From NCBI RefSeq assembly GCF_964204645.1, contig NC_134025.1, forward strand, positions 23,788,299 to 23,852,298: a DNA stretch of 64,000 nucleotides, read 5' to 3'. This DNA comes from Tubulanus polymorphus. Lineage: Eukaryota > Animalia > Nemertea. The notes below the pieces were generated by a model. It did no database searches. It saw nothing but the letters and a program-made list of their open reading frames with translations, and was not told where the DNA came from. Position numbers and translations under genes: made by a program. Positions 6,301-30,100 of this stretch are shown here, in pieces; positions within the stretch are counted from its first letter, which is position 1; each line of letters starts with the position of its first letter.

Positions 6301-9300
6301 TGATAAAACTCTTATGGCTTCAATTTTTGTAGAACGTAGTTTAAGATGAATAAAGCAAGTTCTGCAGTAAAATTATCAAATTGGTTTAGTTTAAACCGAA
6401 GTACTTATGAATGTAGATCAATTGATTGGGCATGAGCCAAAATGTCTGCTATCACGTTGTTGTAGTATTATGAGGTAAAACTCGATACCTGAGGTATTTA
6501 TTAATCATATATATTATATTTCATTTAGCATATGTTCATGCGGGAAAATATTTGAAAATTTTTTATTGGATGAAAAATCATCGGAACTAAACAGTATGCA
6601 CGTCTATAAGCAAGCTAACTCTTTGATAAAAGATAGTAAACTGGTCAACTTTTAGAAAAAGCTAGCCTGAGCATATATATCTGGTTAACTATCGAAATGT
6701 TATACCATTGACCAACTGCTGTATGTAATCACTAAATGTTCTGAATAATTGATAATAGTGCTCGGCGTGTTATTGCATTTGTTACTATGTCTTGATCTCG
6801 ATGAATAATTCAGTGTGATATTTTATTATGGTCGTAGGGCTCAATTCAGGTTGATGGAAGCATCCTGTCATCGGATCTACACACGAGAACGTTCGTTATA
6901 TCGAATAAAACCACTGCCAAAGAGCTGATCAGTCTTGTGCTGACCAAGTACAACATGGCCAGCCGCGATCCAAACCTGTTTTATCTCACAATGGAAACAA
7001 GCAGTAAAAATACTGGTAAGGAGTTATGTACCTGGTCATAGCAGTCGAGAAGTTTGGGCTAGCTTCTATTTTGAAAAGACCTCACATCTCTGCTCGAACT
7101 CTCATTCTTGACAAGAGCTATACGAAATATTTTCTTGTTAGACCTTGACTTTTTGTATACACTTTGCTGCATTTCCGTGACAATCCATATTTCTTTTGCT
7201 TAATTATTGTAGAGAAACCAATTCAAAGTGTGGTTACGATAGGTGAAATGAGCTGTCCATTGGACATCCAACTTAACAACAACAAAGATACAAAGTGAGT
7301 TATATCAGAATTAAATTGCCCTTTTAAGGTAAATTAGAAAATGTTGATGATGATTTACGTATCTTTTACAGGTTTTGTATTCAGATGAAAAGTGGAGGCT
7401 TAGTAAAAGTGTATGACAGTTGTCTGACACCAGGGGTAAATTTCCGATTTTGGTTTATAATGAAAAATGTGTCTTATGAAACGCTTTTAGGCTAGAAAAA
7501 GTGTTACCTTGTTGCTCGTAATCGGCTGGGTCACTGGTTAACTGCAATAAAATTTGTAATCAGTTCATTTCTGTCGGGTCTATCATTGTTAGCTTGATCA
7601 TGATTTGGAAAAAAAGTTATGCATAGGGTACAGGTCAACTTTTAAGCTTGGCAAAAATGAGAAACAAGGTATCAATTTATTTTTGTCATATTCATTTAAG
7701 ATTGTTAAATGTCAAATTTTTAATATCGATTGCAGTCATTCTATAAAAGTATGTTCATATCAAAGAAAACCACATCTAGAGAGCTGATCAAATTGTTGTT
7801 ACATTATTACAAATCTCGAGAATACGTAGATGACTTTGTCTTGATGGAAACCGATGACCAAGGAAATGGTGAGTAATAGGAATTATGTGCTGCTACATCA
7901 AGGTCGGGACTGAAATCTTTTGTGATTTATGCTCAGTTGAAGCATCAAACCTGGTACCCAGGTGAGACCTGAATATGACTACTATTTGGGAGTTTAGTTT
8001 CTACTCCCAAAAATATCCACCCTCAAAATCATAATAATCTCTAACACAGTTCATTTTCAATTAATCTACTATTTTTTAATGTGAAATTACTCTTATTCTT
8101 TGTGAAAACTACAATGAGAGATATCAGGTTGTCCAGTCTCTCAGGTATAAATGATTAGATTGTCATGGCAATTGAATGCGGACATTTTTAAATTCACCCT
8201 CTTAAGTCCAATCAGCTTAGTTGCATTAGCAAATATGATACAGTGTTTGCAATAAGCAAATAGTCACATATTTGATATTGAATATCATATATTTATGTGG
8301 TTATGTGGGAAATTGGTGGTAAAATTTAGAAATTTTCAATAGAATAGGGCATGCTTTCCTACTTTTCCTATTTTCCAATTTAAAAAGTTCTCCTGATCCT
8401 TACTTTTTATTTTTTCACATCTTTCCTAAAAAAATCCTATTTTTCTTCTATTTCTGATGGTACAGGTGTCATCACACTGTCAATCATCTTTCTGCAAAAG
8501 CCCTACATTGACAAGGATTCAGCCACTGAATCAGCATTCTTGAATTCTGTTAGCTTGACAAGCATCAACAGCCTTTTGGTTGATGACCGGTCAAGAGTGC
8601 CTTCAATGCATAATCCTGATCAAGTAAAGGTATCAGCAGTGGCAGATTCAGGGGAATTCCTGGGTGTCTGGAGTTAAAGAATGATATCAGAGACCCCAGA
8701 TGTCCCTAAAAACAATGCACTTTGGGCATTCAGCAACTTAGAAAAATAAATTCCTTATTTTCCTCATACTATGATTCAAAAGGTGTATGCCTGTAGAAAT
8801 GAAGAAGATATGTGTTGTTCCCGTCAGCGTACTGAGAGTAATTGTTATTTGGACCCCTTCTGTTTTGTACAACAGTATGAATTATTAGATTCAGTTTCGG
8901 AATTAACCATTGGCTTATGTCCAAAGAAAAAGCCTACATTTGTATAAAATAATCAAGCAGTCATTGTTTCCTAGCCACAAAAGCCCTCGTGCGAATCTTA
9001 ACTGAGGCATGGTTTAGTGACCACATTCAAATGCTATTTATAAGGTTGTGGCTTATTGAAACAAATGTATCAATCACCTTGCTCTTTATGTGTAGCAGTA
9101 CTGCAAGGAAAAACAAGACATAACAAATGTGTTTAGCCTATGTATTTCGCAAAGATCTTATGTTTTGATGTATAGTGTTTATAAAAATTCACATTTCGTT
9201 TTAGAATTAAGGAGATTGTCGGAGAGTGAATGCCCTCTTATTACTCAGCAGAGATGGAAGTCAGAAAAATGTTTTCAGCTCAAAAGAATTGGTAAAAAGA

Positions 9301-12300
9301 GTAATTCGGTGAGTTTGGCTTATTGAAATTCAACATTATGTATGATTTGATTTAGATATTGGATAGATTTTATGTGAAATGATGAGCGGTGACATCAAGG
9401 AACTTCGATATACAATTTCTTATGTACAATGTAAAAAGCAAGCTACACCACCGTAACAGTATTCTAATTGGTCTCCAGCATAGTCTAAAAAGCATTCTAC
9501 GTATACTATTTTTTCATACCCCATGTTGTTTTATTTTCGACTATCAAGTAATTAGAATGTGGCCCTATATACTGTCTTGCATTTTGAGTTGGGTTATTCA
9601 AGGGATTAAACGTATAACATCATCAGTGTTTGATTAAGGATTGTTAGATCAACAAAATTTTGTTCACATACGTCCATGTGTTTTATTCATGTACAAACTT
9701 GTCTAAATCCAAACAGGTATGTAAATTACAATGTTTGGGTGTTGTTGGCAATTCATTTCAAACTTTTGTGCTTAATTTTAGGTTCAGCGATCACGCAGTT
9801 TTGGGGGAGTATCTGAACACGGTAGAGAACACTTGCAAGCTGCTTTAAAAAGATCAGCTCAAAGAGTAAGTGATGAATTTCTCATTAGATGTTTTTAGGC
9901 ATGTATTTTTGGGCAGGTGCCAATGCAAAACAAAAGATTTCAAATCAAACAGTTTTGAACATAAGCATTGGCTCAAATTTTCACCGTCAAATATTTATTG
10001 CTAAACGAATCAAATACTTTTATTCAAACATTAAATCCTATACACTATTCACAACTATTTCTTTTGTTTAAATTATGTATTGCGTTTACAAATGGTCCCG
10101 GTGTCTGCTGGAACAAGCCATATGGGTAGACCTATCGCTGAGATTCCATAGAATTGGGTCACAAAGTGTGAAGTTGACGATCAATGTACAGTACTGTCAT
10201 AGTCGTTGATTTTCAAACAATATGCCAATTGAACAGCACTGCAGGACAGTGATTTAGTTCATGTTCGAGTAATATAACTCTTGTCTTATTTATGAATACA
10301 AGATCGTTTACTGCAGTTGAGAGTGTTAATATTTATTTCTGTTTATGCTGTTCTTCAGAGAAAGCAACGCTCCAATTTTCTCGGAGTCGAAGAAAATACA
10401 GTGCCATCGGATGAAAGAAATGATCAAATAGAAAAATTACGTGGCAGTTTATTGCAACTCCAACAAGATAAGAACAGTGTATTCTTCAGTAGTCAGCAGG
10501 CTGTAAAACCAACGATTGATACAGCGCCGAGGGATCTACTCCGCGAGAAGATTGAGAATTTCAAGAACATTAGGTCAAGTTTCCAAAAAACAAAAACAGA
10601 CAATACTAAACGTGAAATAGAATCTAAAGCGAAGCCAGAACCAAGTTCGGTTGTCAAGGAAGAAGCAAGGGTGAATACCGATTCGAAAAATTTGAATGAC
10701 GATGAATTATTGCAACAGTCAATAAAGGAACGTAAAGTAAAATTGGAAGAAACATTACGAGCACGATCAGCGAAGGCACGCTTCGTAAAGATATCTGAAA
10801 ACGATGAAGGCATGAACGCCGAATTGCCTGAACACGTTCATTATAAGAAAGAGCAGCCCGATAAAGTTGATAGGAAACAGAATAAGCGATACAACACTAT
10901 ACCAGGAGATTCAGTAGACGATCCAAAAAAGGTCTTGGATATACAAGAATTTAAAGGTCGGATATCTGAAAAATTGTACTCATTGAGCAGACAGTCATCA
11001 AAAAAGAAAACAAATCAAGTTGCTGGCGACGATTCTAGTGAAATTACCAATAAACTGACTGGTAGATCAGATGAGATAAACACGGAATCTGAAATACAAC
11101 CAGCAAGCATGTCGAATGTTGCAACCACAATCTCGGAACATGAACTGAAAGCCAAAGAGAATTCAATTAAAGAAGTTTTAGCTGAAGAAAAAGCGAAGCT
11201 TTTGAAGGCAGTTAGTCATGGTTCTGCTACCCAACAGGGTACTTCTGTGGCAAACCGATACAAACCAAAATCAGTATCTCTGAGCAAAAGCAATGCATCG
11301 ACTGATACAAAGCAACGATCGTTCTCATCTACTGGCAGTGAATCTCCCATCAAAACAGTTCAGTCTGAAATAATGAGTGCCAAAAATTTGAGAAACTTAC
11401 GAATGCCAGTTGCAGTGCGTCCAGTTCGAGCTGTAGCCAAAGAAAATACTGAAAATATGAGTAAATCTGCGGCAACTCCAAGAAACGATGGAGAGATAAC
11501 CAAAGATGGATTGCTAAAATCATCTAGCGAGGCTGAAAATAGTAAAGCGAAACAACTGAAGGATAATGATGACTCAAAAGCAAAAGATGAAGCTGAATCA
11601 AATAGACTTGGTGGTGCAGCTGCGTTATTACGTAAAAAGAAAGGACGGCGATGCTTGCCAACTATTCCTTTGAGTGCAGATTTAGAAGAGCGAAAGCGTC
11701 GCATCGCAGAACATGCTCAAATAAAGCTTCGTGCTTATTCTAGTTCTCGAGCATCCTTAGCGAGCGTAGATGATGTCAGCGAAGCGAGTACATTAAAGAA
11801 TATCGATAATATAGAAAGTGAAGCTGAAAGCATTCCAGAGCAGTTTAACCTGGAAACGAAGAACAAGAAACAGCAGAAGAACTCGTTTACCAAACAACAC
11901 AATTCTGTTGCCGATTCCGTCAATGCCTGGCAGGAGAAAGCAATGGCCGAAGTCAAGGAAACCAGTGCATATGGGTATGAGTCTAAAACTAGTAATATCA
12001 GTCCAAAAGACAATCTACCAGCTTTATCTATAGACAACGAATGTGAAAGCATTCCGGAATATCTATTATCTCCATCCAATCCTGATGATGCATTGGATGG
12101 ATTTGTTTATGATGCGAATATATCTTTTGATTTCGAATCGGTTACATCCAGTCCGAGAGAGAGTAATAAAGGAAAACTTACGGTGTCAAAAAGTAACGGT
12201 TATGAAAACAATATTGTTTCCGAACTGAAACTGGATTTAAAATGTGATAATGCTCAATGTTTATTATCTGATAGTAATGCAGGTTTATTATCTCGTTTTA

Positions 12301-14929
12301 GTGATAAACAACCATCTGCCGTTAGAGATTCCAGTGAAATGAACGATCAGACATCAGCATCCAAGGGAAGCGGGAGTTTTCCCAGAACTCCGGGAGATGG
12401 CCAGGATTCAAAAGGGACTATTCTTTATAAAGAATCGTTTGTGAAAAATCTCAATACAGAGTTTAAAAAAGGTCCTGTCCATAAGAAATCTACAGTGTCT
12501 AATCCGCAGACAATCAAATCAACTATAAGTCGCATTGAAGAAAAAACTCAAAACGTACTTTTAAATTCACAGTCAAATGAAAGAAAGACTGATCTGGGTG
12601 CGAAATCCGTGGTTAGTTCGGAAAAACCTCATAGTTCTCTTAACCAAATGTCTCTAGTGTCCGAAAGACGGAAAGCTAGAACTAGAAGTACAGGGTCTGT
12701 GTCAAGCAGTCGACCAACTTCTAGTAAATCATCACTGAGTAGGTCAGCTAGTGTTAAAACAAACACAGTCGTACCACGACAAACTTTAGTTTCTAGGCAG
12801 AGCAACGTGAATATGCCTCAGAAAACACTTGGCAGACATCCATCTAATAATTCGTTATTAAGTGAATCCGAGACATCCGGTTTTGCTGATCAGGATTACA
12901 GTCACTCGTCTCGGTCATCGAAAGTAAGGAATACGCAAAACTTGAACCGGTTTGCCGATTACAGCCCGGAGCATTCGGTGAAAAGTTTCTCCGGATCAAA
13001 TCGTGTACCGCAAAGCGCGCGTGAGCCGAAATCCTACACGTCGTTCTCAAATCCAGCTCCATTGTCTGCGCGAGATCCGCCTTCGAATGCCGCGCGCAAG
13101 ATAAGCAAGACGGGTCATTCGCAGGAAGAAATATTACAGGCGAAACAGGCTCTGTTGATGTATGCCGCTGAGCCGGTCACACCGCGATCGTCGAGTCGAA
13201 TTCTAGCTATCTCTCCGCAAAAAAGTGCAAGTCGTAGTAACGGTGAAAATACTCCTCACAATCAGTCAATGTATCAACTGCGTATGACGCCCGATTCTGA
13301 AGCAGCAACTACACCTCATAATATGACATTTTCAACTCCTCAGATTGCGAAATATCCGAATAAGTCGGGAGAGAAAGGGCAGGAATTGGACATTAATCGA
13401 AACGTCGAGTTGCAAAGAATACGGCCATCTCTTCACGATGTTGTGCGTACGTGTGATCTGTTTACGGTCGAAGTTACGAAAGGAAACTGTTCGAAATTTG
13501 GTATGAAATTGTTCGAATCCGTGTTTATCGATGCCGGTGCATCTCCGAAACGCCAGTCGCTGAGATCGCCGAAGGGGAAACGTCCGATGATTGGCCAGAA
13601 TAATAGCGCTTTCAAGCGTGTTCGCACGAGCAGTGAAAGCGAAGTTAAGTCGATCATATCGATCGATTCAATTGAGGAAAATAGCGCAGCGCAACGCAAT
13701 GGACATTTACAAGAGGGGGATCATATAATCGAGATCGACGATAAATTTGTTCTCGAAGCTCACGTCGCAACAGCTCAAGCATACATTCAGAGAGCCGGAG
13801 ATGTACTGAAATTAGTGGTGGCGCGTATCAAGGGTGGAACATCTACGTCTAATTCTATATTGGAGGTAAGATTTTACATCCATTTATTCTGTTATTTAAA
13901 GATATTTTCCATTACATCACTTAATTTCAGGAAAAATAATCGTTCTTGGTTGTTTGGGATAAGAATCAGGTTTCCTTCTTTATTGGTCATTAACCTGATA
14001 TGAAATGTTTGAACTTAGGGGTATTCCAGGGTGCCTCAGTGTAATTGTGTGTCTTTCCAAAATTGAAGTTCTTTTCAAACTTCTTTTTTTGATATATACA
14101 CATATCGTGAATAGAAGTACTAGTGAAATATATGGAAATTCGCCCCAACCTATTACATATATGTGTGCACTCTCAATATTGTGATTGAATGAATGAATGA
14201 AAATGAATTTACTCAGGCAATGAGCTTTGTATGATGAAATATATATATAAATTCTAAGTGTAAACACACGCAGTACAATTATCTCTGCAGCAAATAAAGT
14301 GCAGTTTTTCCAATCATATGAGAAGTATAGAATCATTCTATAAAATGAATTGGCATACATAGACCTGTTTATACAGTTCCCGGTCTTGTTTAGTTGCGTA
14401 GCTCTATGAAGCGACAATTAATGGTTGAGTGTATGTAAATCACACAATCACAATGATTCATACAACGCTATTTCCATAACAAGGGTTTCATAAAATATTC
14501 CTGTATATTTCATTAACCCTTAATTGATGCACAACTGGTATTTTTCATGATTTGAAAATCTGATTATGGAGGTATTTGATTCGTCATGGCCATTATACAT
14601 GCCTACAATCACTCCTCATCAAGAAATAAAGAATGATAAGATACCCTTTACATAACTGATAAAAATGTATTCATAACTGTATTCATAAACATCATTTTTT
14701 TTTTCAGGGATCGAATCTGTCTGAACAATCATTTGATATCAGGGAAGAGAAAGATATGTTAAAACTGAAATACCAGAGTCTTATGTTAGAATCTCAACAG
14801 AAGGACAAACTTATTGAAGAACTACGCAGTATTATCGTGAAACGAGCTCAGGTTCGCCAAATCAAAGATGGAATGAAACCTTACAAACTGAACATCGATG
14901 ATCTGGAAGAAGAATGTTCTGCTGTGTAA
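3229..14929 (+). CDS. Multi-exon gene: SAM + tandem Ras-association (Rau-like) + PDZ + coiled-coil scaffold protein
   Basis: Phase-consistent GT-AG exons 3229-3343, 3455-3505, 3827-4542, 6838-7015, 7213-7294, 7372-7435, 7736-7868, 9205-9308, 9782-9865, 10359-13865, 14708-14929 (TAA). Domains recognised from translated motifs. The start codon is uncertain. Confidence 0.8.
3455..3505 (+). CDS. SAM-RA-RA-PDZ gene exon, SAM domain middle
   Basis: YGIDGKTLLSIDREFL is the SAM 'IDG..LL.L' motif. Flanked by TTAG and GTAAT, phase-compatible. Confidence 0.8.
   Translation, partial: AMALMGKLCFQLIENS
3827..4542 (+). CDS. SAM-RA-RA-PDZ gene exon, SAM C-terminal helix and acidic linker
   Basis: RGIYERDLQTKILSAIYEV then a low-complexity D/E/N/S linker (ORF 3853-4554). 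Donor GAA|GTAAGT is phase 0 and joins 6838 in frame. Confidence 0.8.
6838..7015 (+). CDS. SAM-RA-RA-PDZ gene exon, first RA domain
   Basis: GSIQVDGSILSSDLHTRTFVISNKTTAKELISLVLTKYNMASRDPNLFYLTME fits the RA fold; RDP.LFYLTM resembles Rau-family proteins as I recall them. Confidence 0.8.
7213..7868 (+). CDS. SAM-RA-RA-PDZ gene exons 7213-7294, 7372-7435, 7736-7868 (end of RA1, RA2)
   Basis: Spliced translation EKPIQSVVTIGEMSCPLDIQLNNNKDTK-FCIQMKSGGLVKVYDSCLTPG-SFYKSMFISKKTTSRELIKLLLHYYKSREYVDDFVLMET. All junctions GT-AG and in phase. Confidence 0.8.
9205..9865 (+). CDS. SAM-RA-RA-PDZ gene exons 9205-9308 and 9782-9865
   Basis: ELRRLSESECPLITQQRW...FQLKR is the RA C-terminal 'R.L...E.PL....W...F.L' motif; the next exon reads VQRSRSFGGVSEHGREHLQAALKRSAQR. 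Consensus splice sites. Confidence 0.75.
10359..13865 (+). CDS. SAM-RA-RA-PDZ gene giant exon: S/K/E-rich disordered region and PDZ domain
   Basis: 3.5-kb open frame. PDZ motifs FTVEVTKG...KFGMKL ... ISIDSIEENSAAQRNGHLQEGDHIIEIDD...AQAYIQRAGDVLKLVVAR. Acceptor CTTCAG at 10358, donor GAG|GTAAGA. Confidence 0.9.
14708..14929 (+). CDS. SAM-RA-RA-PDZ gene last coding exon (coiled coil, C-terminus EEECSAV)
   Basis: TTTTCAG acceptor, phase 0. GSNLSEQSFDIREEKDMLKLKYQSLMLESQQKDKLIEELRSIIVKRAQV...DDLEEECSAV*, with AATAAA signals downstream. Confidence 0.8.
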   Translation, partial: GSNLSEQSFDIREEKDMLKLKYQSLMLESQQKDKLIEELRSIIVKRAQVRQIKDGMKPYKLNIDDLEEECSAV

Positions 14930-16053
14930 CTTTCCCGATTATAGAAATTACATTGCATCTACATTCTTGAAATTTTGGAAAATAAATGCCTTCAAATTCG
15001 TTAGACTTTCCAATCTATCCAGAAACCAATAGGCCTATGTATCCAAAATATTCCATATCATTAATTTCCTAGTTTCCAAACATTGATATAGGTTTTAAAC
15101 TCTGAAATTAATTAGAATATGTGTGTATCTAGATGTGTGTACTGTTAGGGTAGTCCAACACCAAAAATCCCTGTTTATCCATCCATTTCAGAGGTATAAT
15201 TTTTTGTAACCATACATGTACAATCAGTATTGTAACTGTATCCTCATACATTTTGGTGAAATAGGCATTGCATTGAATTTTTTGTAAGCATTTAAGTAAC
15301 ACACGATGAAAATAGTTTGTTAATGCTTTTGTATTGAACATTATGTTCATTTTAGTGAAAGGTGTGGACTATGCATTAAATTTGCATTTTGATATTTTGT
15401 TAATATCAAGGAAATTATTGTATACACTATGTAGCAAAGGATTGTTTATAAAGTTGCATGCCCTGTTCATTAGGCTTATTGGTATGTAAATGAACAGCTC
15501 AAGTAGTTGTCCGAGTATTGCTTTAAGTATGCCTCCAGAAATAAAAATTCCTTCTAAATTGCAAACTATATTTTGTCAAACAACTACAAACTTGTAGAAA
15601 CATCGTGTACATAAAAAAGAATTGATATGCCAAAAAATGAAATTATGAATTGCAGTGAATGCAGATAAAATATTAACATTTTGTAGGCTACTATTCAATA
15701 TTTATTATTTCAAGCAACCGTCCTGAGAAGTCTTTCATGTTAAAGTTTGTATCCTATTTTTAGAATTGACTTTTTAAGGTATTCTCGTTTACGTCTATTT
15801 ATTAAAGAATCGTTATATATTTAAATTCTTGATTTTTACAAAAGAAATTCCAACTGTGATTATTTTGTTTCCTGTGAAGATTTCAACTACTAGTTATTAG
15901 AATAGAATACACCAATATATGCTTTAGGTTAGGCTGTACATTTATTTATTGTATCAGAAATTTTATAGAAATGAAATTAATAAAAAATTGTTATAATCGC
16001 GATTCAAGGGTTTTTATCAGTATTTTTCTGATAAGAGGACAGTTATATACATT

Positions 16054-16474
16054 TTAGCCTGTAGCCGTAGGAGGGAGTTTTATTTTCATGGGTCCTATGC
16101 AAACATAACAGTCTCTATTAGCTAGCTCTGCAGAGAAGTACTTCTCGGCGCATTCCTCTGCTTTCTTCCCAACCAGGAGAATATCGGTATGGAACTCCAT
16201 CTGGTCGCAGTTCAAAGAACAGTTATCACAATTGGACTTTTCAACATGTTTGACGACAATTTTCTCTGCATCGTCATCAGGGATGACAGTTACTTCGTAG
16301 AATGATAAATTGTCATTGCAGCATTCATGGAAATTGTGGCTCGGCGTTGAGTGAGGTGTTCCTATTAATCCGAATTGTTCTCTATTCTCTGTAATTAATC
16401 GTCCTTGGAACCATGGCAATGACGAGTTTTTATCTTCGACAAAGCACAAGTGTGCAATTCCTTCAACCGCAGAC
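16054..16474 (-). CDS. Terminal coding exon of an unidentified Cys-rich protein
   Basis: ~140-codon open frame starting at a TTTTTGCAG acceptor (SAVEGIAHLCFVEDK...CDNC...CYVCIGPMKIKLPPTATG*). Globular-looking composition and - strand AATAAA near 15945. The upstream exon was not resolved. Confidence 0.6.
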
Positions 16475-16916
16475 CTGCAAAAATTATATATTTGATGATA
16501 AAAGATGATTTTACTATAAACAATTTATTCAAAAGTGGTGTTCTGTACCAATTAAGTAATACAACAATGTAAACTCAAATATATTCTCCAGGGCCCAGTT
16601 TCACAAAAGATAACTTTAAATCGATTTAATTTCTTTGTTAATTCAGTTTAGATTAGTTTTCAGTTTATCGATCATGTGTCGATTTCAGATAAATTGTAAA
16701 CTAACGAGTACAGAAACCGATTGCCCGGGTTGTTAAGCTACACTTAATGAGTCAATTGACTCTCAATGTATGTATCGAATATAAACATATTTTGAGGTCA
16801 AAAAGAGATTAACTACATGGTAAGGTTAATGTAATTGGGTTGTTTGTAAGCTGGTGAATTAGACAAGAAAAATAAACAATAGCACATGTCCATAGAGAGG
16901 CGTTGGACCGTAACGT

Positions 16917-16927
16917 GCTGCCATCTT
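16917..16927 (-). promoter_or_regulatory. YY1-like motif (AAGATGGCAGC) in a CpG-containing patch, candidate promoter of the - strand gene
   Basis: Close to the YY1 consensus AANATGGCGGC, ~450 bp upstream of the 16474 exon. Confidence 0.3.
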
Positions 16928-19117
16928 GTCGTGGCGTTAGACTGGTCGCCTGTTCAATTCTGCGCCACCTGCATTCGCAGTCGAGCTCAGACCACTATTC
17001 CAAAATCTTCTATATCCTATAGTAAAAACAAGAAATTCGAGAGGAGGGGTCCCAGTACAGGAATGCCAGTACATCCGAGCCCAATATCTAAGGGAATCCC
17101 CCACCGTGTTTGGTACCCTTACTCCAAGCAAAAAAGTCCAGGGAATCCCTTATTTCATCATCAATCTGTCTCTCAGGATCAATGGATTTCATACATATAA
17201 CCGAGGCTCCCCCTTCCTTCTCCATTCAGATTAGATATTTTTTGAAATTTACATTTTTATAATGGACACTAACGTTTTGTAAAATTTGGTGGTTGTTTAT
17301 TTCATGTATGTTTAGATATTTCAGTCACAGATTTATTTGGAATTTCAACCTGAATTGAGACAATGAATTCTGAGATATTTTCACCATCTGTAGAACTCTG
17401 TTTACAGTGGAAGATCGTTTTAACAATTTATCAGTTATTACAAAACTAGAATTTCATTCCAGATAAGACAATATCAATTATTTCCATACTTGATATAACT
17501 AATTATAACTAACAGATTTTCTGGTGCCCTGAAGTTCGTTGCAACGAAGTTCCGCTGTATAATTTTCTAAATTCAAAGAATGTTTTACAGACTTTTCGAC
17601 ATCAATAATTAACCACCAAGAAATACTTTCTTTTTATTATTTCAGGTGGCTGGAAAGAAAGGCGAGAGTCATTGATGCGAGGGTCAATATCGAACGTACA
17701 TTATTTCACCAAGAAACAAAGATTAGGAACTTGGGATTCACCAGAGAATTTTGACCACATTACAACAGCGAGCGTATGAATTTGTACGAGGCAAATTGAA
17801 AATTACAACTTTCATTGCATTGTGATTAATAAACTCAATATTATTATTATCATTTACTGAATGGTTTTTCTTTTGAGTTTATTGTTCTTCTATCAGAGGA
17901 CCGGCATCAATGATGACATGATTTTTGTAGGCTTAAGCAAAATTTAACACTTAATGCGGAATAAAGTGGCAGGTGGCAGTTTTTCACTTAGTGAATTGCA
18001 TCAATGCCTAATCATGACTTGTCTGACGTATCACAACTAGTATCCTCATGGACAGACTGACCCGCGCATGATTTGATACCGCCATATACTCTTTGACCAA
18101 AATCAAAAATGGGATAAGAGTAATTTTGAACAAGAAACGAAATTCTAATTTGGACTTTCCTAAATTTACATGATGATGTACCATTTAATCCAGTATCAAA
18201 ATTAAAGAAAACAATTTGGTTTTTTTTCAAATTATGAGTGGTAAGCATGAAGTTTTTGGCAAAATTTCAGAGTATCGGTGCTCCAAATAATTAAAAAAGC
18301 CTAATATATCTCCCCTCAATTGAAATAAGGAGTTTTTTTTAATGAAAATCTGTCTATTGACGGGATTCTGTGATTAATGATGATTAATCGTGAATACATG
18401 GTATTAGTGGGTTTTCCCCCAATGACTCAAATAGACCGCTTTCCTCGTGCATGGTGTGGGTCAGTTATTTCGGGGTACATGAACTGTCCGTTACGTAGTG
18501 ACTAATAATCTAATTTCATTAGTAAATGTTTACGCGGATTCTATGATATGAAGACCTGTGTTGGTGTGAATCTTTAACTGAAGTGCTATCGGTCGGTATA
18601 ATTTATAAATTATTCTAGAATTTAAGAAAAAAACAGGCGGCGGCTTATAAATTCGGAAGTAGCTGTTGGGAATCAAGTAATTTATTTCATGGTCTTATTA
18701 AAGTTCCTCCACTATATTGTTCAGCAGACTACTGGCGCGTATTCAACCCGGCGGTGGAACCTTTCATAATGTAAATCCATTCAACAATAGAGACACAATT
18801 GCGGTTTTTCAGAGTTGTTGATATCATTTATACGCGCTATCGTATACGTCGCAGGCTGACCACGGTGTACACAAGCATAGACCATTCACCTCAGCTTACT
18901 CACACTGTGAACATGCTACCGTGGATTCTCCTCCTGGCGATCTTCGCTGCGCTCCCGCTCCTGCTTCCTGAGGAACGACGTCTTTATGTTTTATGTGTTA
19001 CTGTTCGTCTCCGTGCTGTCCTGTACTGTTCCGTGTTAATTAATCCGTTCTATTTTTCAGGATTTAACCCGTTTTATTTTTCAGGGCCGATTTCTCCGTC
19101 GAATTTCAACGTTTGCT

Positions 19118-19796
19118 GGAACAAAACTAATGTCCGAAAGCATCGGCTCTCCTTCGCCGGTCATGTGTCGAGGATGTCAGACAAAGAGTCGGTCAGGAAA
19201 TGGCTGCCCTCTACATGCCCTCATACGGAACACGAAAACCAGGATGACGAGGCCTCACTCTCCCCACGTATCAACAGAGTGTGCTTGGTGACGTCAATGA
19301 CGGGCAAGTCAGTCGGATTGCACGGGTTAAAAGTGGAGTGGTAAAGCTGGACTGTCTACTAGTATTCATTGATTCCTTTTCAGGAATTGCTTCGGACAAA
19401 GATTTAGTCTTGTCTTCCTTTGCGTTCTAGCATTCATTGATTCCTTTTAAGGGATTGCTTCGGACAGGGATTAATTTCCCTGTCTTCCTTTGAGTGTTAG
19501 TATTCATTGATTCCGCGTGGGTTGCTTCGGGCAGGGCTTCTTGAGTGCTAGTGCGGGCAATCCAGTTGCACTGCCCTATTTTTGGCTTGGGCAATTTGAT
19601 TGGTTTGTCAGTTACTGACGTCACCCGGCACACCCTGTCGGTAAATGGTGAAAGTAAGGCGTGGTCATCTTGGTTTTCGCGTTCTGTGTGAGGGCGTGTA
19701 GAGGGCAGTATATTCCTGGCTGGCTCTTTGTCTGGTGTTCTCGGCATGTGACCGGCGACGGAGAGCTGAAAAGCTTTCAGACATTAGTTTTGTTCC
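19118..19796 (+). ncRNA. Candidate long hairpin RNA: inverted repeat of an RTE-like LINE fragment
   Basis: Arms ~19118-19363 and ~19547-19796 align in reverse complement. Arm 1 encodes RKHRLSFAGHVSRM, like the post-RT region of RTE-clade LINEs. Most transitions between arms give G:U pairs on the + strand. Confidence 0.55.
19359..19550. repeat. Three diverged ~68-70 bp tandem units in the hairpin loop
   Basis: (T/C)ATTCATTGATTCC...TTGCTTCGG recurs at 19363, 19431 and 19501. Confidence 0.85.
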
Positions 19797-20334
19797 GTAC
19801 CAGGTTTTCATCGCTCTTCTCTTTTTTTTCATTTCAGGACTCCCAAGATGAAGAAGATGCTGAAGGCGACTACAACGAAGACGATGCCAAAAAAGAACAC
19901 TGAACGCAGCAATATTGAAAGTTAAGTTGATACACATGTAAATTACGATGCGTGATACAGAAAGGATTGTGTAACTACAGAAAATCGTTCTTTTACTCAT
20001 TTCAGGTTAATCCGGAAAGGCCCATCTAAAATCTGCCCACCAAAAGTGCCCACAAAAGACTCCACCTTGAAGTACCACCAAACACCGAAAGACCTGCCGC
20101 AACCGAACCTGGCAGTCTTGACCTCATTCTGCATGGCAACAGGAATACATACATACATAAAGCTAAGTTGATTTTTCATATCTGGGGTAGAATGGATAGG
20201 CGCTGGTCAAGCTCACCATCTCCGCACTACTTTATTGAAGCTCTGTGGCCGGTAGTAAATTGAAATATAGCTAGGCAATGATTGCTTGAATATTTACAAT
20301 ATTAGACGAAATGATTGAGTGAGGTCCCTTAAAT

Positions 20335-21040
20335 ATTCTTTGGTCTGATAGTTAAAATGTAGATTGGTCAGTTATTGATTAAAAGATTTTGTAAGTACGT
20401 ACAATTAAGGTAAATTCAATATCGATCTTATGTGACATTTCTAAATTATTCGAATGTACCGTAGATATTTCAGGCCTCATATGACTATTGTTTAACTGAC
20501 AATCAAGATATAGATTGGATAATTTACTAATTAGCAATCATTCAATATCTTGTAATGTTTGATGAGACATTCTTTTGGTGTAGATATTTCAAGGCCCCAT
20601 ATACATTTAGGCCAGCTTTACTTAAAGATATATCAATTAAACTTTATCATCGGTTGATAGATTTTTCTTTACAAATAATATATTGATAAATTTATAAAGA
20701 TTGAGGCCATACTTTACAGTATATACTGTGTGCTGCCTCACACATAACAGTAATGAATTTCATAAGATAGTGTCTAGGGCTCTATCGAGGTCTGGTGTTA
20801 TATGGGGAAAACTATGGACTACGGGTCTTTATGAAACAGTGATTTGGTCTCAACACTTTGATAAATCCAGAATAAACCAAAGCTTTAATTGATTTAGTTC
20901 ATTCCTGAAACACTGCGTCTTGTTTTGGACAACGCATGATAATTGTTGTTTGACTGATAATTAGCATACAGCCAGGAAAAATTGCTTAGATATTCACAAT
21001 TAAGATGAATTCAATATTTGATGTTGGATCAAAAACTTTT
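20335..21040. repeat. Segment duplicated at ~29360-30100 (direct, diverged)
   Basis: Shared blocks such as GTACAATTAAGGTAAATTCAATATC, CGAATGTACCGTAGATATTTCAGGCCTCATATGAC and ATAGTGTCTAGGGCTCTATCGAG.TCTGGTGT.ATATGGGGAAAACTATGGAC. Confidence 0.9.
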
Positions 21041-21811
21041 TATATCATAAATATTTATTGAAATATAGCTGAAATATATAATATATTTGAGCACATCTAT
21101 AAGTGAATCAGTCTCATTGACTGATTAGTTCTGTATAGCCAACTGCCGCGCTTACGACGACTAGCCATGCTTTTCATTATTGGAAAAATTTACTCAAACC
21201 TAACTAATTCAATTTATATCTAAAAGCCATACTGTGTGTCAAGTGACGGATATTAGATATAGTTTAACTGAAAATTAGAATCTAAGATGAATTACTCATT
21301 AACGTATTACTTAGATCGATTAAGGTTAATTCAATTGTTATGTGAAATTATTTCTAATTCCATGGACATTTAAAATGTAGCTGATACATGTGTATCTGAG
21401 CACATTTAGTTATCTGTATCTAAGTGAACCTATGGTGTCTTCATACAGCTGTATTAGTTTTGATACATATTGCCAAAATCATTTAACGCAGATTTACTTC
21501 CGATCAAATCTGTGCACAAATACATTCCTGGATTTGGAAGGGGGGAATATTTCAATTTCACTGTGTATGTCAGATTGAAAGCCTTATTCTGACAGGATAT
21601 CCTAAACTCAGGTCTTATTCCTCTTGCTAATAGCTCTCTTATACTAACCCCTCTTTCAAATTATTTTCTAGCATCATGACTCGCACCGCACCAGGGAGGT
21701 CCGGTCATAACAAGGTCTTTTGGTCCTTATACACAGTGTACTATATAAGGGAAATAAAGATTATATAGCCATTCGGCCAAGGGAATTTCTAATTTACCAC
21801 TAAAAGTATGC

Positions 21812-23083
21812 TTTTTAGCCCACTTGGGACTTTAGTCCCAGCGGGCTATTGCGTTTACTTTTTGTCCGTCGTCCGTCCGTCCGTTCGTCCGTCCGTAGAC
21901 GGAATCCAGTTATTTTGGGAAGTTTTGAAGACGCTTCCAGGTAATGTCTTGATATTTGGGTTACACATGTATCTACCCTAGACACATCTTCAGCCCAAAA
22001 ACTGGCCCTGTCAGAATCAAGATGGTCGACTGGCAGCCATTGTTGTTCACCAAAATCAGCACTTTTTACACATTTTTGAACTTTTTGAGGGAAATTTTGA
22101 AGACGCTTCGATCAATTACCTTGATCTTTCAGATATATGTGAATCCCCCCAGGGCCCATCAGCATAACAAAAATTGGGTCGGTCGGACTCAAGATGGCCG
22201 TCCTATGACCTTTTTAGTGCCCAAAAATGTTAATTTTGGCCCGAATTCTGAGTCCTGTAGCTTCCTACTGGTTGGCCATTTCTCATTACAATTTGTGATG
22301 GGTATTCTTTGGAAAGGGATGTTTTATACCTGAGACAGGTATTTTTCATCAGCCAATTATGACGCAATTGGCGGCCATCTTGGTGTCACCAGTACTCATT
22401 CGTAAGTTGGAAAAAGTTTTTCCACATTATATTGATACCTAAGCGTATTTTGCTACCACAATGGATTAGAAAGTTGTAGCTCATAACGTGTTCCAAGATT
22501 GTGGTGAGTTTCAAGGTAATTGGATTTCGTATATGGCCACCAGGGGGCGTTGAATAATACAATATCTTAGCATTTCTTTATTATATTCATATCAATGCAT
22601 ATTTTGTAACCACAATCAATTGGAAAGTTGTAGCTCATGACATCATCTATGATTGTTGCGAAGGACATAAGTTTTTCTATATGGTCACCAGGGGGCGTTG
22701 GATAGTAGAATAACTTAGTATTTCCTTATTATATTGGTACCTAGGCATATTTTGTTACCATGATCAATTGCAAAGTTGTAGTTCGTGACATATTCTATGA
22801 TTGTGGTGAGTTTCGAGGTCATTGGGTTTTGAATATGGTCACCAGGGGGCGTTGAATAGTAGAATGACTTAGTATTTCCATATTAGATTGGTAACGAGGC
22901 ATATTTTATTATCACAATCAATTACAAAATCGTAGCTGTTGACATGTTCTATGATTTTGGTGAGTTTCAAGGTCATTGGATTCTGTATATGGTCACCAGG
23001 GGGCGTTGAATATTGAAATTGTTAGATTGTTGAGCATTTGAAACCACTTCCCAAGTGGGCATGGTGTCCCTGGACCCCTAGTT
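21812..23083 (+). mobile_element. Helentron-associated non-autonomous element (HINE/DINE/pearl-like) with internal ~150-bp tandem array
   Basis: Subterminal inverted repeats GCCCACTTGGGA (~21818) / TCCCAAGTGGGC (~23049), 5' GTCC microsatellite (21864-21895), 3' short hairpin followed by CTAGTT, T-rich ends. GG(C/T)CACCAGGGGGCGTTG recurs at ~22536, 22683, 22837 and 22991. Confidence 0.75.
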
Positions 23084-24454
23084 TATCTTAAATTTTTGAT
23101 GAATTCAAATAGTGACGAATTCACCACATCTGAAATTCTACTCATGTAGATTTTCAGGCTTCATATAAATATTGTTCAACTGACAATTAAAATATAGCTA
23201 GTATGATTACTAATTAATGGTTCGCTTAGATACCTAGAATTTAATTAAAATTAATTCAATGTAATGAAACTGTGAATGTAGTGAAACTTATTCAAAATTG
23301 CACAGAGGATGAGACGACTGTATCGTGCAATGTCATCTGCGTCTAACTGGGCCACATGTGTGTGTGGGATCTGTTGAATCAGTTAGGTTTTGGGGGATTC
23401 GGGTTTAGTTAAGCTAGGTATCAAAAGCTCTGATGCAAAATTAGCAGTTCAAATAGTGATTAATTCAAATTCGTACCAGATCTGAAATTCTTCTCGTGTA
23501 GAAATTTCCAGCATCATATAAAATATTGTCCGAGACAATTTCAATTAACTTATTGATTAGGTATCTAATTCAGCATCTTCATATAAGGTAAAAGTGCTCA
23601 AATCTAAACCATAGGGGTCGATAAGACAACTGTATAATTTAATATTGATTGATATATAAAGAATACTGGGTATGTTTTAACTCTGTCTCTTGTGCATGGG
23701 ATTTATTGAATCTTTAAGGCTTTGCAGAATTCTGGATTTGTGGGAATGATTCAAGGTTTTTTAAATCTGTAGAACCATGTTACTTATAGGATCAGTGTGC
23801 ACAATGCTGGCAGCGCACTCATTCTTCAGTTAGTTATATTATCATGATTACAAAATCATTGTATATATTAGGAGCAATATTTAGAATTAATGAAATGGAT
23901 TAGAATACCATTCACTGGGTACAGATGTCGCCATCTGTGGGTAGAAAACATCTTTTAAGTTTATTAACTGATGATGAAGTAAATTTGATAATACGAACAT
24001 GGTTTAGCTGACAATCGAAATGTATATAGGCAAATATTACTAGCAGGTTTGCACTGTATGATGGGCCTGGGTTTCAATAAAAGACACATCAAGAATTTCA
24101 AGAAGATAGAAGAGAAAACAGTTCAAAAACGATTTGATAAGATTGATTATGCATTGCTAAATTTGTTGTAACTCTGGTATTCCTAGAGATGACTATAGAT
24201 GCTTTAGTTGAATTGTTGCTAAACTATAATAATCAACCATTGCTTAGATATTTAGAATATAGATGAATTACTATATGAGTTGAATTTCATAAATATCATT
24301 TAAGACTATTATTAAAATCTACGTATCGATCCATATTGCTGATCTTATATATGAATTGACATGATAATCATGATCAGTGATATTCGAAAGGATTTTCAGT
24401 TCAAAAGGTTCTGCTCTTTTCTTCAGCTTGCCGTTTCAGACTGATTGGAAGATA

Positions 24455-25240
24455 GTTTGAATGAACCGGAATCGAATTTCCCAATTATGTACTTCGATTT
24501 CAGACATACTCGAGAAAAACTACAATAAACTGAAAAATTTGACAAATTTAAACGGTGAAAATGACAAAAAAATTAAAGCTAGACAAAATTCTCCCACCTT
24601 GTAAACTTTCGGACTAGTTACATGAAAAAAGACCAAATATTGTAAAATATAGTTATTTCCAAAATCTCGATGTATTAAATTAGGCAGAAAAAAAATAGAT
24701 AAAATTATTAAACCTTGTAAACTTTCGGACTAGTTACATGAAAACAAGACCAAATATTGTGAAATATAATAATTTCCAAAATCTTGTTGTATTAAATTAG
24801 GCAGAAAAAAAGTTAACCCCAATCAGTCACTTAATATGTGCTTCGACTATTTAAACGGTGAAAACGACCAAAAAAATTGAAGTTAGACAAAATTATTAAA
24901 CATTGTAAACTTTCGGACTAGTTACATTAAAAAGAGACCAAATATTGTAAAATTATCTTCAACCTCGTAATATAGTTATTTCCAAAATCAGAATTAGGCA
25001 GAATAAAAGATTGTTTGAATGAACCGGAACCGAATTACCAATTATGTTCTTGGACTTTAAAAAAAAGATCTGTAAAAACGACCGCCGATCACGCAACTAT
25101 ATCTGTACTTCGATTTCCGATTTTGAAAAAAAACCGCCGTATCGCTCCCGGCAGGTGTGGTAGGTTTGTAAGGGACACCAACTCGAAAAGTCAAACGAGA
25201 GCTTGAGGTCAACAAGTCATCAAAAATCTGCCAATTAGAG
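24455..25240. repeat. Local tandem duplications plus a dispersed repeat fragment
   Basis: TTGTAAACTTTCGGACTAGTTACAT occurs three times (~24599, 24715, 24903). GTTTGAATGAACCGGAA occurs twice. 25105-25240 resembles 61297-61410 (CCCGG.AGGTGTGGT.GGTTTG.AAGGGACACCAA). Confidence 0.8.
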
Positions 25241-27029
25241 AAGAGTGCACAGAAACCAACCGACTTAGGAGATCCTCGTCGATGATGAAACCAGCAACTA
25301 TGAGAAAGAGCGACCAGCTTAAAATCAACTACTCATCTGAAATCTATGGATTTGAACAACCCACAGAAGAATCAAACTCATTAGATGGAATTACCGGTAC
25401 GGTATATAGAAATTTCAGGCCTCATATGAATATCATTTGATAAGTGATTATCATCGAAATCTATTTACCTGTCCACATGGCTGATCTTAGAACTTTTATC
25501 TTTACTAGTCTTATGCCTCGGAGTAATAAATTTTTCAAATGATTACTCCAAGCTTAAACATTGATGAACTAGTCCTACTACTGCAATTATTTATTGGGGT
25601 TTAAATCGGCAATTGACGTCAATGAACCTAATTCTGATTTTGGAAATAACTATATTAACTAAGTGAAAAACACGGTGGCTTGTAATTTGAAATGACATGT
25701 AAGTTATGATAAATCTGTCTAAAATGTTTTGCTTTCTTCACTTTGTTTCAGTTAAACTACATCCCGCAAATAATGGCCTGAAGAAGACACAAGTAGACAA
25801 ATACCCATTGACCAATTTGCTGATGAAAACTGCAGAAGCCCAGATGAGAAGTTTAGGAGCCAGCGACGGATCAATCACTCAACGATGGAATCTTCTACAA
25901 TCGGTGGTTGATTTCTATAAAACATTTTATCAGGAGCAGCAGAGATGATAGTGTATCTTATAAACACTGATTCGCGCAGCAAAGATAATGGATTATCTCA
26001 TAAAATCTGATTCAGGATAAACACCGAAGCAGCAAAGACAATGGTTTATCTCATGAACACCGAGATCTAGCAGCGGCAAAGACCTCTGTAGTAAAGTATT
26101 GATTTTTTTTACTAACATCACCCTTTTTCAGACCATTCTGATAGGTAACATAGTTTGAAAAATTTACCTGATTGCGTGGAATGGAGTATGAAAATAGTTG
26201 TTGAGTCGAATATTGAAAATAGTTAGATAATTAGGTTCCGTTGGCCTGAGAAAGGAACTCTACGTTTGAATATTTCAATATAGAGATAACTATTTTATAA
26301 TGAGTTTGTAAAAAGATGTGTCATGTGTTTTGCAATGTGACAGAAATATCCTTCTTAGAGTCTAATAAAAGCTAAGCTCCATTAATTCACGATATTGGTC
26401 CTGGATCTTTGGTTGATAGATAAGTCGAGTTAGGTTAGTCACTAGGAGTAAATGGTCGCGTCGAGCGCCTAGTTTTGAGTTGTAGGTCTGTTGAGTTAAC
26501 GCCTAAACTGAGATATAGTTTCATTGTGCTTACCATAGTTAAACAGAGTCAACACAGTGGCTTTGCCCTGTAGATATCACATGGTTAGGAAACATAGAAC
26601 ATAACGTTCTATGTACAAATAATAAGTATTTGCAGAATTGTAGATGTACTAATTTGATGGCATTGATATTTTCGAAGGCCCGTGTAACCAATTTGAGAAA
26701 TGAATCATATATGTCGATTTTCACATGGAGTTTTAACTTTGAGCCTCCATCAATCTGTTCGATGCTACGTATTTGAAAGCAAAAGCTTTATCTAAAAGGA
26801 GACCATTATTTACATTTGAGAGGTAAAGCTAAAGTTATAGCTAGGACTAATTTTGAACGTTTTAACATTGTTTATAGCTGTTTGAACTTCTTTTATAATA
26901 GTGGGTAAATCCATATCACGAGATGGCTCTCGTGAATAATCACTTAGCTTCAAATCGGGTGTATAATGATTATTAAGAAGCGACAGTGAATTAGTAGTGC
27001 TTTTTAAAAATGGGCCCAGAACTTTACTG

Positions 27030-28905
27030 TGAAAAATGCCTGCAGTTGTAAATAGAGGAGTATAAATAATACATGATACAAAATACATGTGCATGAATAA
27101 ATAAGAAATACCAATAAATAAAAAATTATAAATAATAGATAGTAAATAATACAAAATAAAAGTTCATAAATAAATGAATAATATTTAAAAAAAATTAATA
27201 TAATAATAAGCAACAATACAAACAAACAACAAATTAATACTCTATTTACATGAAAAGGCATTTTTTCAAATATTTATCAATAAGGTTTTTTCATTTATCG
27301 AACAACCTTCCCTAAGTATAGCGAAAACCGGAGATCTTTTCTGTTGTTGTTTTTAGCGTTCTATCAACTCAGTTACTGTAATAAACAAAACAAATAACTA
27401 TAAACCTTAACTAAATCGAATACACTTAAAAAAATAACTGATATGATAGAATGCTTTGAATAACTGTGATGAAAGATCGACCCGTCCTTAGAACTAGCTG
27501 CGCTCAATCACTGCTGTGACTGTTTATTGTTATACTGGGGTAGACTTACGGGGCAGACTTACTATCTAAAATCATGTACATACATTTTACTTTTTAGAAA
27601 GAATCTAAAACAGCTATAAACTTAAGTTATTGATGTTATTGATTAGTTACCGATTGTATAATTATGTTGATGTTTTTAAAACTGGAAGAAAAAACGTCAG
27701 AATAGTTAGTATTTAATGCCAAGGTGCTTGAAAATCTTTGTCGGGGCAAAGTTAGCAAAATTCTAGTTTTCAAGTGAAAGTAATGTTTATGAAAAAGAAA
27801 TTAAGAATGATAAATTGATACTCCAAGATTTCTGGAGTGAATCAGTATGTTTCATCTCTAGTTTTAACGCTTTATGTTAGAGACTGTTGTAGAGATTGTA
27901 ATACAGTTCACGTGTTTGTAAATTAGGAACTTACATGATGATTCCTCGATTAAGATATTATTGTTGTGTGAATAAAACATTGTACATTTTCATCATTCAT
28001 GTTGAAACTTTTCAGTTGTTAAGTTTTATAGCAACTATTTCACTTTGGTGCTTATCAGTCGTTCATAAAATGCTGATTTAATTAAGGCCCTGTCGAAAAT
28101 AGAGGATAACTTGTGGATGCAGTGCTAATTGTTCAATCGTCCTAGCTTTGTTTTGATTATCGGTTTAACCGCGTCTGTGTGGGGCCTGTAATGTCTGGAC
28201 AAGAAGAATTAGTTGAGCTTTTTCTTGATAATTAAATGTCATTTGAAAAGTTGACACGGTAGATTCATATTTCATGAAATATAACAAAGTGTCGGTTATA
28301 TTGACCTCATGAATTGTCAAATTCATAATCTTAGACTTTCAGACTAGTCCAATTTTCTATGTTTTATGGATAAAAATTTATAATTCTTTGTGTATTTATG
28401 TTATTTTGCTATTGATGCAAATTGTATAAAATCAGTAGTAGTGGAAATGTATTGTATATTAAAACTTCGAAATACTTTACATGTTACTTTTGTGGTTTAG
28501 AGTTATTACAATTTCATTCATAGTAATAGAAATAAAATAACTATTAAAATTTGAGAAAATAAGCTAAAAGTTAATATGTTATGTGAAAATAAAATGATGT
28601 AAAAATGTAAATCAGATTTATTACTTAATCCTACGCTTTCCAGAGTATTTGGCCAGGTTTATCTCTGGTTTTAGTGCGGGGGCCATGGACTCTTACAGTT
28701 AGAGTCCATGGTTGGGCCATAGACTTTTCTGTTTTAGAGTCTATGTTAGGACCATGAGCGTATAAACACTCATTTATAGTTTATACGCCTATGGTGGTTG
28801 GACGTTATTTTTGAAAGTCCACGTGTTTGAGGAGCTTACATTATAATTACTCGAGCACTCTTGGCATTTTGTATAATTGTTGTATGAGAATAAATATGAT
28901 TGATT
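27030..28905. repeat. Copy 1 of a ~1.8-kb structured duplicated segment (copy 2 at ~30185-31962)
   Basis: Collinear shared blocks: A-rich tract, AATAAACAAAACAAATAAC.ATAAACCTTAACTAAATC, TCTTAGAC.TTCAGACTAGTCC, CTTTCCAGAGTATTTGGCCAGGTTTATCTCTGGTTTTAGTGCGGGG, GTATGAGAATAAATATGATTG. Confidence 0.9.
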
Positions 28906-29359
28906 TTGAAATTTGTTAAGTTTAATATAGCAACTCTTGGATTGAGGCCTCAATCGATTTAGGAATTATGAAACTGGGTCCTGGGTATTGTTGTTGACCA
29001 ATCAGTTTCACCCAGGATCCCAATGGTATTTTTTCCCCAGGGGCTTGTATATTGTTATTTTATATACATTATACATGTAGGCACTGGATTAACAGATTAT
29101 CGTTTTTACACTACCTACAACTCTGATACGAGCCCCTGTGTTTAATTCTTGCAATCTACTTCATCCAATACATAATCCCACCAACTGGTCCGCTGACAAG
29201 CTTTTACACGTTCGGAAGACATGCTTATGTGATTATATCAACGCTAAAGAACCAATACGACTTTGTGATTTACACTAGGCCCGTTCACAGTTGTTGACGC
29301 TATGACCAGCCAGAAGTACAGCGGGCCTAACTACGATTCAAAAATCAATTTTAGGCCTA

Positions 29360-30100
29360 CTTTGGCTGATAATTAAAATGAAAATTTGTCAGTTATTAAT
29401 TCAGATTTTTTAAGTATGTACAATTAAGGTAAATTCAATATCTTATGTGACATTTGAAATTTTTCGAATGTACCGTAGATATTTCAGGCCTCATATGACA
29501 ATTGTTTAACTGACAATCAAGATATAGAGATGGGACAATTTACTAATTAATTAACCAATCGCTTAGATATTAGCAATCATTCAATATCTTATAATGTTTG
29601 ACAAGAAATTCTTCTGGTGTAGATATTTTAGGGCCCCGTATACATTTAGGCTGGCTTTACTTGTAAAATTAAACTTCGTCGGTTAATAGATTTTTTTACA
29701 AATAGTATATTGATACATTTATAAACATTCGGGCACTTTACAGTATATATTATGTGCTGCTTTACCCATTGCATTAATCAATTTCTCCGCGGAAACATGT
29801 ATAAAATAGTGTCTAGGGCTCTATCGAGATCTGGTGTAATATGGGGAAAACTATGGACAGTGGATCTTTTAGAAACTATGATTACGTCTCAGCATTTTGA
29901 CAAATCTAGTATGAAACAAAGCTTAAATTGATTCAAATCATTCCCCAGAGCCATACTATGCGCCTTGATTTGCGCTATGATTATTGATTAACTGACAATT
30001 ATCATATATATAGCTAGGACAAATTGCTCATTATCAAATGGCTTAGGTATCCGCAATTAAGATTCCGCAATCAATATTTCATGTAAGATCAAAAACTATA
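29360..30100. repeat. Second copy of the 20335-21040 segment
   Basis: Direct collinear similarity to 20335-21040. Confidence 0.9.

Follow-up and report, generated by a model that had tools for sequence, protein, structure and literature searches.

A G:U-rich inverted repeat of a LINE 3' end, the core of a large repeat family in a nemertean genome, as a candidate hairpin RNA

Introduction

Can two copies of a retroelement fragment that face each other in a genome drift apart as DNA and still be held together as RNA? This question is raised by a pair of inverted LINE-like arms in a window of 64,000 nucleotides of nemertean DNA, which is the whole stretch analysed here. A first-pass annotation had proposed that the arms form a single domesticated hairpin in which selection has preserved an RNA duplex, and it had read this selection from a surplus of G:U pairs over A:C mismatches. 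That G:U pairs mark the strand on which a structured RNA is read is standard reasoning (accessible part of PMC1892782). We therefore asked where the arms come from, how many copies exist, and whether the G:U surplus goes beyond what the mutation pattern of the family itself would give.

Results

Architecture of the hairpin

The features of the locus are collected in Table 1. Pairwise alignment agrees with the inverted arms of about 240 bp that had been recognised by eye and divides them into two inverted-repeat blocks, 19118-19141 with 19773-19796 and 19143-19354 with 19558-19769. As DNA, the arms are identical at 189 of the 251 aligned pairs (75%). The plus-strand RNA, in which arm 2 is antisense to the LINE message, pairs at 227/251 positions (90%), whereas the minus-strand RNA pairs at 200/251 (80%). 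Owing to the G:U pairs, the arms have thus drifted to 75% identity as DNA with the RNA still 90% paired. Folding of both strands, a check that the first-pass annotation had suggested, indeed gave the plus strand as the more stable one, with RNA minimum free energies of -417.6 kcal/mol (plus) versus -315.4 kcal/mol (minus). DNA energies again favour the plus strand, by a narrow margin (-176 versus -159 kcal/mol). A long intramolecular duplex on one strand, as it characterises hairpin RNAs (hpRNAs), is hence found on the plus strand. The loop units differ in number and sequence between copies, and in the genomic run X7 (raw genomic reads amounting to 1.93 Gb, about 12% of the total run) we observed read joints in the loop that lead backwards, for example from 19513 to 19420 (77 reads). 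Rfam covariance models gave no match at E<=1 in 18000-21000, and a 23-base pattern of the stem had no match among metagenome contigs.

Table 1. Features of the hairpin locus, with positions in the window and read depth in the genomic run X7.
Feature	Position	Strand	Description	Depth in X7
Multicopy unit	17614..20600	.	Depth tapers on both sides; ends may fall outside the 64-kb stretch	~155 at 17614-17934; 1300-1530 over 18900-19270 and 19650-19860; 147 at 20503-20600
Upstream non-LINE part of the core	18791..19117	+	GC-rich exon-like stretch; putative exon	~1000-1440, on par with the arms
Arm 1	19118..19354	+	Decayed sense copy of the LINE ORF2 3' end; looser pairing up to ~19368
Outer stem	19118..19239, paired with 19673-19796	+	Least variable part between copies
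Loop	19355..19557	+	203 bases; three tandem units of ~68 bases	dip to 300-530
Arm 2	19558..19796	-	Inverted second copy of that LINE fragment; looser pairing from ~19542
Downstream acceptor-like sites	19832..20170	+	TTTCAG at 19832 and 20000, each a putative acceptor, then exon-like stretches	960 dropping to 600

LINE origin of the arms

Judged by protein matches, the arms are the extreme 3' end of ORF2 of an APE-type LINE, corresponding to about the last 50 residues. A two-row profile of the downstream frame of the arms, in which the shared stop was read as X, retrieved five matches among 1.84 billion proteins. Four of these (P0001, P0002, P0003 and P0005) are repeat proteins that scored through many weak stretches and were dropped. 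P0004 was matched in a single stretch (E=1.5e-4) and led to P0007, a 958-residue protein containing endonuclease and reverse-transcriptase domains (PF03372, PF14529, PF00078 and PF20049), which we take to belong to the RTE or RTE-X clade. In tblastn, arm 1 matched P0007 residues 876-898 at 19135-19203 and residues 899-927 at 19206-19292, in order and with one frame shift between them (joint E=1.3e-5). The segment before the shift carries the motif from which the first-pass annotation had suspected a LINE; it is absent from the query and hence provides an independent check. Arm 2 matched P0007 residues 899-939 at 19706-19587 (E=0.004) and P0004 (E=2e-5). Controls with reversed proteins reached E=0.008 at best. 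The suspected LINE resemblance is real, with both arms matching the C-terminal residues 876-939. An in-frame stop and the frame shift are common to both arms, and only about 240 bases of the LINE are kept.

The 64-kb window holds neither reverse-transcriptase nor endonuclease coding sequence, nor the parent LINE. A literature search for the motif returned no match, nor did word-seeded searches of proteins for the arm peptides, and the ESM Atlas gave scores of at most 0.80 for the arm peptide. We also considered a 189-residue frame that runs over arm 1 (18775-19344) as a gene and discarded it, since it has no Pfam match and crosses the frame-shifted LINE piece.

A large repeat family

The read depth (Table 1) shows that we are not dealing with a single domesticated locus, as had been assumed, but with one copy of a large family. 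Among 5938 hairpin reads of X7, 237 are at least 99% alike and 1743 less than 90%. With an assumed genome size of 200-1000 Mb, the core depth translates into roughly 150-750 copies. In X2, single contigs have depths of about 30-47 and the summed core depth reaches 9000-15000, a sum that is consistent with many copies and gives no copy number by itself. The hairpin therefore sits at the core of a family whose copies probably number in the hundreds. Since the depth matches along the stem (rho 0.81, p=0.005), most copies possess both arms, and because the depth crosses both outer arm ends without a drop, the arms are not the termini of the element. The family reaches more than 1 kb past the arms on both sides. 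A depth peak on the hairpin and its exon-like neighbours that tapers outward appears unlike a transposon with conserved ends. Opposite-strand joints at 19201/19708 (59 reads), which could be taken for a flipped inner segment, were judged to be mapping artefacts because they fall on a frequent 1-base deletion at a point where the two arms resemble each other.

The window contains one hairpin copy in its 64 kb, with a PDZ gene on one side and a second long open frame on the other. No member of a transposase, helicase or reverse-transcriptase family is encoded by the 41 frames of at least 62 residues in 15000-34000. On its right, the hairpin unit has a flank (20338-21037) that recurs 9 kb away at 29360-30097 with 75% identity and, in further fragments, at 23146-23218; no second hairpin is present in the window.

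Foldback transposons and MITEs likewise combine high copy number with long inverted arms and the potential to form hairpin RNA. Such an identity was rejected here, as the inverted repeats are not at the element ends and the depth is continuous past the arms. Unlike in these elements, the arms are internal and LINE-derived, and the MITE-like repeats of the window show no such G:U excess. The nemertean elements Ajax and Helenus are, judged by their description in the accessible part of PMC10886601, unrelated.

G:U excess and mutation bias

Three pairwise scorings of the arms gave G:U, A:C and transversion counts of 34/11/13, 38/11/13 and 41/11/24, in agreement with the 37/11/13 counted manually in the first-pass annotation. 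The asymmetry persists in formal alignment, and in the same order binomial tests of G:U against A:C at 50:50 yielded p values of 8e-4, 1.4e-4 and 3.6e-5. The premise that neutral transitions would fall equally into both classes proved to be wrong, because the flank variation of the family is itself strand-biased. Among the X7 variants outside the hairpin (467 sites at a share of at least 5%), A>G changes per A exceed T>C changes per T (72/768 versus 48/811; 1.6-fold, p=0.010), with a similar tendency for C>T over G>A (73/450 versus 59/459; 1.3-fold, p=0.16). Due to this bias, the neutral G:U share among transitions is 0.576 (about 58:42) instead of 0.5.

Also against this corrected share the excess is present, for 38 of 49 transitions (p=0.003) as well as for 34 of 45 (p=0.010). 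The flank counts are unpolarised, and the test depends on the share of flank sites that run backwards: with 10% of the sites reversed p is 0.006 (38/49), with 20% it is 0.02-0.05 and with 30% it is 0.13-0.22 (0.02 and 0.13, respectively, for 38/49). The G:U excess survives unless about 30% of the flank sites are mis-polarised. The 16 high-share flank transitions that were listed split 8:8 in the direction of the window and do not suggest a hidden strong bias. When all three classes are compared, the observed 38/11/13 stand against 20/15/27 expected from the flank spectrum of the family (chi-square p=8e-6), a test that may be inflated together with the transversions by misaligned reads, given that the AT-rich flanks were aligned at 80% likeness.

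The control inverted repeats of the window point in the same direction. Two that were classed have 3 G:U among 28 mismatches, or 8 of 28 on the better strand, compared with 38 of 62 in the hairpin (p=7e-6, and p=0.006 for the better strand). A MITE-like control repeat at 55353-55606 with arms of 118 bases shows 7 A:C, 2 G:U and 12 transversions on the plus strand.

Origin of the G:U sites

We polarised the G:U sites at the residue level against P0007 and P0004; L001 was tried as a DNA outgroup and found too distant, with agreement at only 87 of 188 shared positions. In two aligned blocks, 10 of 17 G:U sites could be polarised, giving six C>T and four A>G changes on the plus strand, distributed over both arms, while none of the six A:C sites was polarisable. 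The same two kinds of change appear among the copies: the 13 Watson-Crick/G:U switches among the listed copy variants comprise 7 C/T and 6 A/G, and the hairpin as a whole has 37 A/G and 47 C/T variant sites. The first-pass annotation had named A-to-G editing fixed in a retrocopy as an alternative. As C>T changes stand beside A>G changes and make up six of the ten polarisable sites, we reject fixed ADAR editing as the sole cause.

Variation among copies

Of the 136 hairpin variants in X7, 40 were listed; three of these fall within the loop and were set aside, and the other 37 touch 33 pairs of the arms. Among the listed variants, 29 changes are one-sided: 13 swap a Watson-Crick pair and a G:U pair (seven in one direction, six in the opposite), five repair a mismatch, nine break a pair and two alter a mismatch. 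The four listed two-sided changes all yield a pair. Such co-location exceeds expectation modestly over the whole stem (4 versus 1.3, p=0.03) and shows no enrichment in the inner stem alone (4 versus 2.2, p=0.15), with the arms unphased in these reads and with arm-to-arm gene conversion as another source of compensatory changes. The partners of the nine pair-breaking changes may sit among the other 96 variants. When all 37 listed letters are swapped in, the hairpin has 37 G:U, 11 A:C and 15 transversions, that is 26 mismatches compared with 24 in the window. As the counts hold after 37 swaps, the G:U bias is a property of the family and not of this copy only.

Divergent forms of the inner stem fit together as well. 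An arm-1 form represented by 247 reads pairs with an arm-2 form from X1/X2 contigs at 15 of 15 positions, while crosses of the same two forms with the arm of the window pair at 12/15 and 13/15. With another arm-2 form, this arm-1 form reaches 23/26, where the crosses give 20 and 22 and the window 25. The top-share variants among the 37 listed are concentrated in the inner stem (31/258 positions versus 6/244 in the outer stem, p=3e-5), and the low variation of the outer stem may reflect a stronger constraint or a mosaic copy in the window. The variant density is 0.19 per base in the hairpin and in the flanks alike, which speaks against a strong constraint on the primary sequence. Substitutions that preserve pairing, a further hallmark of hpRNAs, are present, with caveats on polarity and phasing. 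Of the earlier interpretation, the plus-strand polarity has held up, as has a surplus of G:U pairs over both chance and the bias seen in the flanks; the 9 of 29 listed one-sided changes that break pairs tell against a selected duplex.

Splice-like signals and strand

Several indirect signs suggest plus-strand transcription of the family. In 17560-21000, TTTCAG is present 10 times in the plus strand and twice in the minus strand (p=0.04), compared with 51:47 in the whole window; within 18700-20100 alone the ratio is 7:1 (p=0.07). The tandem units of the loop contain splice-acceptor-like sites (19359-19557), the first with TTTCAG at 19378-19383, and upstream of the hairpin, at 19040-19085, a 24-base unit with an acceptor-like site is duplicated in tandem. 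The hairpin may thus be exonic or may be part of an intron that ends at 19837. The flank mutation bias is what one would expect of a non-template strand. The runs X8, X9 and X10 gave no aligned reads on 19100-19812 and are uninformative on expression. Upstream of the hairpin and still within the high-depth core, 18919-18985 holds a signal-peptide-like frame with a hydrophobic run after the ATG; this frame may represent a first exon, either captured or ancestral.

Other features of the window

A short piece of very high copy number lies at 17503-17560 (X7 depth about 1400), with sharp loose ends on both sides and head-to-tail joints of 55-59 bases, and resembles the end of a Tc1/pogo-type miniature element. 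The element at 21813-23085 combines a (GTCC)8.5 run (21864-21896) with a 154-base core repeated 3.9 times (22415-23012) and also has a small hairpin at its terminus; it resembles the Helentron-associated HINE/Pearl-like elements. The stretches 27119-28903 and 30204-31961 form an old local duplication with a spacing of about 3 kb and 66-83% identity. The PDZ gene occupies 10296-14930 on the plus strand, with a frame of 1235 codons that ends in the PDZ domain (PF00595, E=3e-8) and a likely last exon at 14707-14930. The other long frame (38752-41151, 799 codons) has no Pfam match and ESM Atlas scores of at most 0.80 only; its start resembles the actin-binding end of neurabin/spinophilin.

Discussion

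The following reading would account for the locus. An inverted duplication of a LINE ORF2 3' end makes up the core of a multicopy repeat family, and its plus strand probably gives rise to a non-coding RNA. Selection probably maintains the duplex of about 240 base pairs in this RNA, from which an RNase III enzyme (Dicer-1 or Drosha) would produce small RNAs that are antisense to transcripts of the LINE; arm 2 would, after either type of change, remain able to form wobble pairs with the message of the ancestral LINE. Drawn from sequence, this reading as a whole is offered tentatively and with somewhat less than even confidence. Its parts are of different strength. That selection acts on a single-stranded RNA fold we consider quite probable and, such a fold granted, the candidate dicing, Argonaute loading and targets are still rather to be expected.

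A selected fold could also serve the repeat itself. It may act within a mobile or duplicating unit, either as structured RNA or as single-stranded DNA, or it may be a long duplex that is left undiced and is edited or retained in the nucleus. Hundreds of copies would suit such a selfish element, the flanks merge into other repeats, and all of the pairing evidence, including the DNA folding that likewise favours the plus strand, suits any single-stranded fold. DICER2 is moreover absent from the probable host lineage according to the accessible part of PMC11114477. However, the strand gap is far greater in RNA than in DNA energies, the depth is maximal in the middle with no sharp ends in the stretch examined, and the 41 frames of 15000-34000 provide no transposase, helicase or reverse transcriptase. 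We regard a fold kept for the repeat as a serious contender that is nevertheless on the unlikely side.

Selection can be dispensed with if an old inverted LINE fragment has been shaped by deamination-type mutation of the plus strand (A>G and C>T) together with gene conversion from arm to arm. The flank bias indeed has this direction for both changes, the variant density of the hairpin is not below that of the flanks, nine listed one-sided changes break pairs, and the two-class test weakens once 30% of the flank sites are mis-polarised. Yet a bias of 3.5:1 would be required where 1.36:1 was measured, and the listed high-share flank transitions are evenly split. Transversion mismatches are scarce in the hairpin (13 versus 27 expected), whereas the control repeats of the window are rich in them, so that mutation and conversion as the full explanation seem unlikely to us. 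A further path without selection leads through an RNA intermediate, in which ADAR edits fixed as A>G in each round of spread would create G:U pairs and erase A:C mismatches. Such editing would be specific to the hairpin and would act on the correct strand, and it accounts for the four A>G sites. It leaves the six C>T sites and the seven C/T switches aside, A/G variant sites are not above C/T sites in the hairpin, and acceptor-like intron sequence has been retained around it; we consider this path very improbable.

Returning to a selected, diced duplex, the closest known counterparts are the hpRNA loci of Drosophila. In D. simulans, the arms of hp-ODox2 derive from a BS2/Jockey element and produce antisense siRNAs, and hpRNAs are often spliced and often multicopy (accessible part of PMC10317233). 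Like these loci, the hairpin is a long imperfect inverted repeat of a LINE-type piece with one arm antisense to the element. The hpRNA families described in the accessible part of that paper have 4 dispersed or 9-20 tandem copies, in contrast to the roughly 150-750 copies here. In addition, hpRNAs are defined by Dicer-2-dependent siRNAs, whereas the present family is known from sequence and belongs to a lineage reportedly without DICER2. Engineered plant hairpins with 18-26% G:U pairs still silence (accessible part of PMC9263138). With 15% G:U (38/251), the hairpin resembles them in that the repeat is broken at the DNA level and the RNA duplex is kept; the engineered hairpins are artificial and carry C>T changes in one arm, while here both arms and both types of change are involved.

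For nemerteans, Formaggioni et al. found DICER1 and no DICER2, and no endo-siRNA signature in the gonads of N. geniculatus (accessible part of PMC11114477, also for the following). A siRNA-type Argonaute exists in some species; its cargo was left open, and the authors suggested that DICER1 might supply it. Their Argonaute tree places four nemertean genera among the siRNA-type proteins and Lineus longissimus only beside the miRNA-type and PIWI proteins, so that the complement of the host itself matters. Six short motifs of the stem do not occur in the first part of the supplement of that paper; its later part may contain the miRNA sheets for nemerteans. A Drosophila-type Dicer-2 endo-siRNA route is doubtful in a nemertean host. 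The specific proposal that Dicer-1 makes small RNAs from amplified LINE-tail hairpin genes, which a siRNA-type or miRNA Argonaute would then load, we likewise hold to be quite unlikely in this exact form. The searched literature, which covers few subscription papers, contains no description of this hairpin family or of nemertean hpRNAs; the family may be catalogued as an unnamed repeat in repeat libraries.

Conclusion

If the Dicer-1 hairpin reading is true, endogenous long-hairpin silencing would be seen here for the first time in a group that is believed to have lost its endo-siRNAs, and with 10 to 50 times as many copies as in the fly hpRNA families. Hundreds of long duplexes with fold-preserving substitutions offer a concrete place to seek the cargo of the siRNA-type Argonaute. 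If instead strand-biased mutation and gene conversion made the pattern, the family gauges how far such mutation can mimic selection on RNA, which would affect the use of wobble bias as evidence in any scan. The hundreds of diverged copies are a natural experiment in how inverted repeats persist by swapping DNA identity for G:U pairs.
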